Positions 38,077 to 39,597 of a stretch of 64,000 nt of DNA are shown piece after piece. The DNA comes from an uncultured Candidatus Binatia bacterium (GTDB taxonomy: Bacteria > Desulfobacterota > Binatia > Bin18): assembly GCA_965200965.1 (NCBI GenBank), contig OZ241744.1:3456001-3520000 (forward strand), written 5' to 3'. Each line of letters opens with the position of its first letter. Position 1 is the stretch's first letter. The translations under genes and the position numbers were made by a program. Under the pieces are notes generated by a model, which was not told the DNA's origin, did no database searches, and saw only the letters and a list, made by a program, of their open reading frames with translations.

Positions 38077-38802
38077 CTATTCTGCCTCCAACACTTGCGG
38101 GTCAAGCTGATACCACATCACTTCGCCGGATTCGATGCTGGGCTGTATCCGGTTATCCCTGTGCAGACCAGCCACTACGGCATAGCAGCGTTTGCCGGTA
38201 AACCCGGTCAGGAACCCGGCGTTGCGGACGGCCCTGGTCGTATCCCGCCCGTTGGCGGTGAAAGAGATCTCCACGGCGATGTGGCAGGTTTCGCCGGCTT
38301 GGTCGGTGGCTTCCATAAGCAGATCGGCCCGGCGGAAGCTTCTCAGTTCGTTTGCGGGAATATCTGCAACGTTTTGGGACTGGACGAGGGAGCGTATTGC
38401 CTCCTGGTTCAGGGTCCGTACCAGAGTCAGTCCGAGGTCCTCGGCTATGAAGTCGGCCTCTCTGAGAGCGGCGTTTCGGGCATGGGCACCCTTGAGCGGC
38501 GCGATGTCGTCGCGGAGTGACTTAAGATCGGTTTCGACGCGGCCGAGGCGTTGTTCGACCTTCTCCAATCGTTGTTCGACCTTCTCCAATCGTTGTTCGA
38601 CCTTCTCCAATCGTTGTTCGACCTTCTCCAATCGTTGTTCGACCTTCTCGAAGCGCCTCTCGGTGGCTGCGACGAACTGGGCGAATTTTTCAGGTAACTC
38701 AAGCAGTTCGCGCGTCAGCAGCCGGACGCGCAGGGCTTCAATCCACTGGGGATTCTCGTCAAGCACACGGATCAGGTCTTCTATGGTGTTGATGGTAGCC
38801 AT
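38077..38802 (-). CDS. Coiled-coil protein with heptad VNTR and C-terminal PD-(D/E)xK-like domain
   Basis: About five EKVEQRL heptads; RRADLL...IAVEIS. Confidence 0.7.
   Translation of the reverse strand: MATINTIEDLIRVLDENPQWIEALRVRLLTRELLELPEKFAQFVAATERRFEKVEQRLEKVEQRLEKVEQRLEKVEQRLEKVEQRLGRVETDLKSLRDDIAPLKGAHARNAALREADFIAEDLGLTLVRTLNQEAIRSLVQSQNVADIPANELRSFRRADLLMEATDQAGETCHIAVEISFTANGRDTTRAVRNAGFLTGFTGKRCYAVVAGLHRDNRIQPSIESGEVMWYQLDPQVLEAE
38549..38649. repeat. 21-bp tandem repeat, about 4.8 identical copies
   Basis: CGTTGTTCGACCTTCTCCAAT at 38549, 38570, 38591, 38612 and partial at 38633. Confidence 0.97.
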
Positions 38803-38939
38803 TCTCGTACCTGCACTTGTCACTGGCAGCATAGCAGAAAAGCTGCGCCGGCCAAAAGAGGCGGTTATCGGGACATTATGCCTCGTCGGCTGTTGGGTCC
38901 GCTTGTCTCTTCCCGCCCGCTTCTGCTATGACCGGGGCT

Positions 38940-39052
38940 ATGGCAGAGAGAGCTGATCTGCGCCGCCGCCCGCAGCTAATAATGGTTTTGTTCGTTATGG
39001 GTTCGGTGGAATTAAATGGCAGAGAGAGCTGATCTGCGCCGCCGCCCGCAGC
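38940..39052 (+). repeat. 37-bp exact direct repeat flanking a 39-bp unique AT-rich spacer
   Basis: ATGGCAGAGAGAGCTGATCTGCGCCGCCGCCCGCAGC at 38940-38976 and 39016-39052. Confidence 0.95.
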
Positions 39053-39597
39053 GGGTGACGCTGAAGGATATTCTGCGCACCGCGGTTAATCTGGAAAAGA
39101 AGACGATGGCGCTCTACATGCGCTTTGCCCAGGTTTTTCAGGAGCAGGAGGAACTGCGCAAATTCTGGTTTGCCATGGCGCGCCATGAAGCCGGGCATCT
39201 GGGTGCCCTGGCCCTGGTCGAAGGCGTCCTGGAGAGCGAGCCGGATGTGGCCGAGAGCAGCAAAGTCTGGTTTGATCCGTCCTCGGTGGTCCGCCTCCGC
39301 TCGCTGCTCAGAGCCTACGACCGTGAGGTCAATAGCGGAGTTGGCGTTGAGCGGGCGTTTGAGATGGCGATTGATATTGAAAGCTCAGAGCTTGAGGATG
39401 TGGTAGTGGAACTGCTTCAGGTGGTCAAGGAAGACAAGATCCACGACCAAGCCGTGAAGTTGCTCATCCACGATTTGAGCGCTCTGAGTTACATGGTCGA
39501 GAAATTCACCACCAATGACGAGTTACTGGCCCGCGCCGATGAACTGGTTGACTACCGCTTCGATCGACCGTCGGTTGCCCCGCCCGAGAAGGACTAG
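39016..39597 (+). CDS. Ferritin-like/rubrerythrin family protein
   Basis: AVNLEKKT..LY...MARHEAGH...AIDIES di-iron helix motifs. Confidence 0.75.
   Translation: MAERADLRRRPQRVTLKDILRTAVNLEKKTMALYMRFAQVFQEQEELRKFWFAMARHEAGHLGALALVEGVLESEPDVAESSKVWFDPSSVVRLRSLLRAYDREVNSGVGVERAFEMAIDIESSELEDVVVELLQVVKEDKIHDQAVKLLIHDLSALSYMVEKFTTNDELLARADELVDYRFDRPSVAPPEKD

Follow-up and report, generated by a model that had tools for sequence, protein, structure and literature searches.

How does a gene come to carry its own first 37 nucleotides twice, on either side of a short insert? The question arises at a rubrerythrin-like gene in a 64,000-nucleotide (nt) stretch of the genome of an uncultured Candidatus Binatia bacterium (contig OZ241744.1, positions 3,456,001 to 3,520,000), here called the window. 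[quoted passage not shown] The integrase was most likely the cell's own, the one linked to its type III-B system, acting outside its array. The evidence for the role of the enzyme comes from the geometry of the unit, the existence of an empty allele, a period that agrees with the III-B array, and 16 sister units in the same genome, and it is correlative throughout.

The repeat unit and its alleles

The first copy of the target duplication, corresponding to the first 37 nt of the ancestral gene, lies at positions 38940..38976 of the window on the plus strand. The insert, a putative spacer with a guanine-plus-cytosine (GC) content of 33%, follows at 38977..39015, and the second copy, which restores the 5′ end of the gene, lies at 39016..39052, also on the plus strand. 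Positions of the unit, its promoter, and the gene are given in window coordinates, and those of arrays and sister units in genome (contig) coordinates. The two copies are 100% identical and repeat with a period of 76 nt (37 + 39), which bears out an earlier note on this DNA that had described a 37/39/37 duplication starting exactly at the ATG around an AT-rich insert. By arithmetic, and without shuffling, the chance of an exact 37-mer repeat at such short range is negligible, approximately 0.26^37 per position pair. There is no third copy of the 37-mer in the 3,620,516-bp single-contig genome, where the next best match has 11 mismatches.

A repeat of this kind could be an artefact of assembly, and in three of the four sequencing runs that we compared, the single copy is found alone, as an artefact would predict. 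These four runs (X2, X4, X7, and X11) come from 19 that were listed, 17 of which hold all or part of the stretch and several of which are labeled as sponge metagenomes. In run X2, however, a 99-nt contig contains the insert and both junctions at a depth of 15, the same as that of the flanks, while a contig made up of the repeat only has a depth of 34.5. With the insert spanned into both copies at flank depth and the repeat at double depth, an artefact is refuted, and we give it practically no chance. Over 1051 bp, run X2 and the window differ at 2 sites, and the run is for that reason unlikely to be the sample from which the window came.

In runs X4, X7, and X11, exactly 76 nt are missing, and 37 letters can be aligned to either side of the gap; these runs differ from the window at 4, 10, and 13 sites, respectively, in approximately 975 bp (98.6–99.6% identical). 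Among 40 relatives searched with a 901-nt region, 29 matched, and 19 loci were returned and compared. At all 19, a single 37-mer forms the start of the same gene and the insert is missing. Because the site is empty in three of the four runs and at each of these 19 loci, the ancestral state is the single copy, and the insertion is segregating within the species. The earlier note had suggested looking for a single-copy allele in reads and relatives; it is present in both, and the insertion is real and recent.

CRISPR–Cas systems and the fit to type III-B

Cas1–Cas2 attaches both 3′ ends of a prespacer to the DNA, one on each strand and offset by the length of a repeat, and the target is duplicated in the repair that follows. 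In this genome, cas1 is present at six loci, typed as III-B, I-C, I-B/MYXAN, II-C, I-E, and V-C. The type III-B cas1 (345 amino acids) and cas2 (95 amino acids) are intact and adjoin the III-B array, as does cas6. Repeats and spacers measure 37 and 36–46 nt in the III-B array, 37–38 and 33–38 nt in I-C, 36 and 34–38 nt in I-B, 37 and 30–31 nt in II-C, 28 and 33 nt in I-E, and 25 and 18 nt in V-C. The corresponding array periods, which are independent of where the edge of the repeat is drawn, are 73–83 (III-B), 71–75 (I-C), 70–74 (I-B), 67–68 (II-C), and 60–62 (I-E).

A period of 76 occurs in the III-B array only, in 8/86 units. The length of the insert falls inside the III-B spacer range, with 8/86 III-B spacers being 39 nt long, and 37 bp is the repeat length of III-B, II-C, and the older I-C repeats. 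The comparison of 37 and 39 with the genome's own repeat and spacer lengths, which the earlier note had proposed, thus yields a fit to the III-B array. Given a Cas origin, there is a good chance that the integrase was the III-B-linked one.

In the course of events that we propose, Cas1–Cas2 would have linked a captured piece of DNA, 39 bp long, to the two opposite strands at points 37 bp from each other (38939/38940 and 38976/38977). Repair of the gaps would then have copied the 37 bp, as happens at a CRISPR repeat. The insertion shifts the frame and would have been tolerated because copy 2 rebuilds the entire gene and its whole reading frame. For copy 2 to restore the whole gene, the ATG is the furthest point at which a duplication may start. 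We regard the unit in the window as a scar of mutation rather than a functioning CRISPR array.

Other features of the CRISPR loci were observed along the way. In the I-C array (1689412-1698694), the newer part has repeats of 38 nt (117/128), and 11 mostly old units are one base shorter, which suggests that the length of the I-C duplication changed by one base. Seven array spacers match the chromosome perfectly (four I-E, two III-B, and one I-B), and for two chromosome-matching I-E spacers, AAT/AAC is found on the side opposite to that expected, which would suit insertion in a flipped orientation. The leader end of the III-B array (3365797-3365834) has a promoter-like TTGTCA-N17-TATACG. This leader and the region upstream of the window unit (38900-38939) have CGCTTGTC in common, but in a register shifted by 8 nt relative to the junction; these are probably just two similar promoters. 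The V-C locus (678575-684000) has 13 repeats of 25 nt with 18- to 19-nt spacers, its cas12c is split into two open reading frames (ORFs), and its cas1 has an in-frame TAG. The locus looks decayed, and no off-target unit of 25/18 geometry was found in the genome-wide scan described below.

Similar units across the genome

The earlier note had also suggested scanning the genome for other short duplications around inserts, and 16 more units of array geometry were found. The scan was mismatch-tolerant, covered periods of 36–200 with arrays masked and tandem repeats filtered, and reduced 565 candidates to 33 isolated units. Array geometry is seen in 17 of the 33, the window unit included. Eleven of these make up a 37-bp class, with copies of 37–40 bp (exactly 37 bp in seven) and periods of 68–78, and six make up an I-E class, with copies of 27–30 bp and periods of 60–61. 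One unit, 1118450, is at most 37+31, the geometry of II-C.

The search for empty alleles covered 13 of the 17 units and left out 2360022, 2416367, 2182236, and 2964141. The site is empty at ten of the 13 (the window, 1833927, 1842262, 445086, 244733, 3359968, 2173980, 1247292, 1469848, and 2790044), and none is filled in another species. At units 2540592, 589271, and 1118450, the joined flanks were not found in relatives, which is uninformative for an empty allele. Among the runs, unit 1833927 is empty in three of four, and unit 1842262 is empty in all four.

Five of the 17 inserts have a full or nearly full match at a distant site in the chromosome (34/34, 28/28, 33/33, 34/34, and 34/36), and a sixth has a partial one. 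The chromosomal source of the insert in unit 1833927 (27/33) is flanked by AAG, and that of the insert in unit 1842262 (37+35) by TTC; we take these to be the protospacer adjacent motifs (PAMs) of types I-E and I-C, respectively. Some targets also resemble repeats: that of unit 1842262 matches the I-C repeat at 17/37 positions (p 0.035), and units of the I-E class resemble the I-E repeat in three of six cases (p 0.013–0.029). A G stands at 9/14 strand starts of the seven exact 37-bp units (p 0.01), a weak and post hoc signal. The first base of I-E spacers, tried as a test for a PAM, was uninformative.

These lengths and flanks bear on the possibility that an error of replication or break repair, such as a staggered break or template switch, duplicated 37 bp and added filler DNA with no Cas protein involved. 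A target that does not resemble a repeat would agree with this, and the 16/33 isolated units of other geometries indicate that other duplication processes act in the genome. However, no fixed length is expected from such errors, and yet 7/11 units of the 37-bp class are exactly 37 bp, with periods in the array ranges. PAMs at the sources of two inserts are likewise difficult to reconcile with it, as is the fact that no such unit was found in the 2.0 Mb scanned from relatives in which no 37-bp-type cas1 was detected (see below). We consider a repair error quite unlikely.

The sister units also bear on an origin from a prophage or other integrative element that used the first 37 nt of the gene as its attachment site and then decayed or left imprecisely, so that 39 bp remained. 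Integrative elements that restore a gene end by duplication are well known, and both the start of the duplication exactly at the ATG and the AT-rich insert would suit one. Yet the identity of the copies and the polymorphism among strains leave little time for decay to 39 bp. There is no integrase among the nine neighboring ORFs that were scanned, and the copies are separated by no more than 39 bp. Among the 16 sister units, neither the targets nor the array-sized inserts are related, and some inserts have chromosomal copies beside a PAM. Clean excision, finally, would leave one copy and not two, and the alternative raised in the earlier note, the scar of an excised element, is therefore unsupported. 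We regard an integrative element as largely refuted and very improbable.

If the units arose by off-target integration, selection seems to have sifted those that survive. Each of the four mid-gene units in the 37-bp class preserves the frame, adding 24 residues in dprA and 26 residues in three other ORFs, while only 25/86 periods in the III-B array are divisible by 3. Units of this class that shift the frame sit at gene ends or between genes.

Three sister units may be described individually. Unit 1842262-1842371 places its 24 in-frame residues inside the conserved core of dprA, and its insert is a chromosomal 35-mer from beside TTC; at this locus (L050:2602), run X4 has 1586 extra letters, probably an insertion sequence. 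Unit 3359968-3360080 has the 37/39 geometry and lies at the 3′ end of cmr5, within the III-B operon itself; it is empty in relatives G007 and G004. Unit 2416367-2416478 is older, with 37-bp copies that differ by 4 mismatches and a 38-nt insert, and its copies match the I-C repeat at 16/37 positions (p 0.075).

Control genomes and the weight of the evidence

Genes for Cas1 were found in 34/41 genomes of the family. Relative G052, which is 98% complete, belongs to another genus, and has no cas1, had array geometry in 0/14 units in 1.2 of 5.0 Mb. Relative G006, from the same genus and with I-E-like cas1 matches only, had it in 0/3 units in 0.8 of 5.2 Mb. At the density of this genome, finding none has a Poisson probability of 0.004 in G052 when all classes are counted and of 0.002 in G052 and G006 together when the 37-bp class is taken alone; for the I-E class, the comparison in G006 is without statistical power. 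In relative G007, which has a similar set of cas1 genes, 0.4 of 3.6 Mb held seven units, two of which have an empty site in this genome, with geometries of 34/39 and 35/40, and the insert of one matches the chromosome of this genome (35/37). We take the G007 scan as partial support. At position 359153 of G052, a genome without a cas1 match, there is a degenerate remnant of a CRISPR repeat that ends in ATTGAAAC.

Several points weigh against off-target integration by the III-B-linked enzyme, in whole or in part. Controls G052 and G006 were scanned in part only, and the first is from another genus. As a positive control, G007 is thin: its copies are 34 and 35 bp long, and one only falls within the 35-41-bp class. 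Compared with all repeats, the window target has 12–13 matches in 36–37 positions (p 0.54–0.76, from 1500 random sites per repeat). Since likeness to a repeat was tested and not found, we treat the window unit as a variant rather than a plain member of the off-target integrations. Its insert is the AT-richest of the 17, and only 2/86 III-B spacers have a GC content of 40% or less. If the duplication were 1 bp different, the I-C integrase would fit too. Lastly, no protospacer of the 39-mer was found in any search (genome, relatives, phages, plasmids, and metagenome contigs).

The I-E class adds a further discrepancy. Five of its six units (1469848, 1833927, 2182236, 2790044, and 2964141) have a period of 60 (27–28 + 32–33), as against 61 in 220/223 array units. 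Frame selection was considered as a cause of this period and rejected, as unit 1833927 truncates the ORF of an FAD oxidoreductase from 396 to 305 amino acids. The copies of units 2182236 and 2964141 differ at 3 of 27 bp, and these two units may be coding repeats.

The searches for the source of the window insert were as follows. Any other match to the 39-mer in the genome has at least 15 mismatches, and none of the array spacers matches it; it is also absent from the 40 relatives searched with the 901-nt region. The best E value was 7 among annotated phages and 6 among plasmids. The 23-nt core of the insert had 0 matches in metagenome contigs and in genomes of the species, and its codon-degenerate pattern had 0 viral matches. 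A 17-nt core occurs in five viral loci and extends to only 24–28/39 positions, which we attribute to chance, and no support was found for a VRR-Nuc-like phage gene as the source. Type III-B systems are expected to work without a PAM. The search of phages and plasmids proposed in the earlier note thus returned no source. No match to the end of an insertion sequence or integron appeared in any search made.

Overall, the off-target acquisition by Cas1–Cas2 that the earlier note had suggested is supported by the six cas1 loci, the empty alleles, and the 16 further units. The note had named three findings that would tell against it, namely a genome without cas1 and cas2, an insert from an insertion sequence or integron, and no reads across both copies, and we encountered none of them.

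The gene, its promoter, and its start

The restored gene (39016..39597, plus strand) encodes a rubrerythrin-like protein of the ferritin fold with 193 amino acids. It aligns with the 19 relatives and has a match to Pfam Rubrerythrin (PF02915) that is weak and above the cut-off (E 6.2e-5; 23.8 bits vs. 22.8). In most relatives and in the empty-allele strains, the product has 198 amino acids. At 39595, the insert-bearing strains have a TAG in place of the C seen in the empty strains and in the five closest relatives that were checked; this stop trims the last five, poorly conserved residues. The insert-bearing strains also have H180Y in common (H or R in 19/19 relatives), and X2 adds A66T. Changes that alter the protein (3/4 in the filled strains) occur in the empty strains too, including one at an invariant residue.

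Upstream, a −35-like hexamer, TTGTCT (38903..38908, plus strand), stands 18 nt before an extended −10-like box, TG-C-TATGAC (38924..38932, plus strand), and the two form a putative promoter. The box lies 7 nt before the ATG of copy 1 (ATG1), and relatives have hexamers similar to the first element (TTGTAC/TTTACA). A conserved TGnTA box ends 6 nt before the ATG in 15/19 relatives, and in 12 of these 15 the Shine–Dalgarno (SD) pairing is weaker than −3 kcal/mol. A scanner for the sigma-70 consensus called no promoter here, with the TTGTCT hexamer below threshold. Across the genome (2987 ATGs), TANNNT is found 6–8 nt before the ATG in 21, 20, and 19 cases vs. approximately 13 at other distances, a modest signal of leaderless transcription. 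The earlier note held that the ancestral gene was leaderless; conservation of the box speaks for this, and the ancestral mRNA was likely leaderless.

The insertion creates an upstream ORF (uORF) of 30 codons (38940..39032, plus strand) by translation from ATG1, and its stop codon, the TGA at 39030-39032, lies 14 nt beyond the ATG of copy 2 (ATG2). The insert also provides an SD-like GGTGGA (39005..39010, plus strand) 5 nt before ATG2. The −10 box, the frame-shifted uORF, and the GGTGGA all lie where the earlier note had placed them. If the promoter still fires near ATG1, the uORF would now come first on the formerly leaderless mRNA, and the real gene would depend for its translation, probably at a changed level, on re-initiation or on the weak SD of the insert. 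Such a conversion of the gene from leaderless to leadered is plausible. The predicted duplex with the anti-SD is −6.4 kcal/mol before ATG2 vs. −2.2 before ATG1. Among 172 III-B spacer ends that were scored, 24% have an SD at least as strong, so that the motif needs no selection to explain it.

This arrangement raises the question of whether selection has favored the unit as a device, be it a functional mini-CRISPR that yields a guide RNA or a switch, made up of the uORF and SD, that retunes the gene. It stands directly behind a conserved promoter-like box and would likely be transcribed, its SD-like motif comes from the insert, cas6 lies beside the III-B array, and the allele is common to two strains. 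However, the repeat is unlike the III-B repeat that Cas6 would recognize, and in relatives this same "repeat" is conserved coding sequence. The SD is equaled by about a quarter of spacer ends, as noted, and the allele is missing in three of the four runs and all 19 relatives. The H180Y change and early stop in the filled strains fit drift as well as selection. A selected device is, in our view, highly unlikely, and we retain the reading of the unit as a scar of integration.

Near the unit, a 21-bp tandem repeat at 38528-38674 of the window encodes a heptad coiled coil in a divergent gene of 251 amino acids.

Relation to known off-target integration and its meaning

Off-target spacer integration by the type I-E Cas1–Cas2 of E. 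coli was reportedly described by Nivala, Shipman, and Church in 2018, with the resulting loci termed "neo-CRISPR." The targets of those events are said to resemble the native repeat. Two papers describe the off-target events in E. coli as rare and as occurring with overproduced Cas1–Cas2 (PMC7054753, PMC11788318). A 2018 preprint calls natural cases in two species "circumstantial" and the frequency at native Cas levels in bacteria unclear (10.1101/148544), and another paper mentions IHF-like motifs near off-target sites (PMC9456107). The likeness to our unit is that of a spacer-sized insert and a repeat-sized duplication at ordinary chromosomal sites. However, the E. coli events were obtained by laboratory overproduction, whereas those described here are natural and polymorphic among strains. 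Up to four systems appear to be involved here (I-E, I-C, III-B, and possibly II-C), and the target in the window, unlike those of the E. coli I-E system, has no likeness to a repeat.

Two other systems offer partial parallels. The type III-A Cas1–Cas2 of Thermotoga profunda shows substantial off-target integration in vitro unless HU is present (PMC13769266). It is likewise a type III-linked integrase with off-target integrations, but those were seen in vitro and with III-A, and the present genome bears scars despite its three genes of the HU/IHF family. In Streptococcus thermophilus, ectopic spacer acquisition takes place inside arrays (PMC7999890). There, too, Cas1–Cas2 integrates away from the leader end, but the target is a true repeat in an array, whereas here it is a gene start without repeat sequence. 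A literature search, which reached few subscription papers, found no survey of natural off-target integrations. The process itself is not new; here it is unusually well documented in nature, in a single bacterium that has several CRISPR types.

The genome offers a datable natural set of approximately 17 likely scars, with filled and empty alleles in one species, insert sources flanked by PAMs, and several CRISPR types. With such a set, the fidelity of the integrase, its choice of target, and the fitness cost of its errors become testable from metagenomes. The window unit shows one route by which a frame-shifting insertion can survive, in that the duplication itself restores the 5′ end of the gene. 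More broadly, and only tentatively, off-target integration by Cas1–Cas2 may be a standing natural mutagen of several types (III-B, I-C, I-E, and II-C) in CRISPR-rich sponge symbionts, with a type III-linked integrase that would not need a repeat-like target. The products that survive may be heritable innovations, such as in-frame insertions of 24–26 residues, for example in DprA, or, as in the window, the conversion of a leaderless gene into one that is led by a uORF and an SD and would still be translated.
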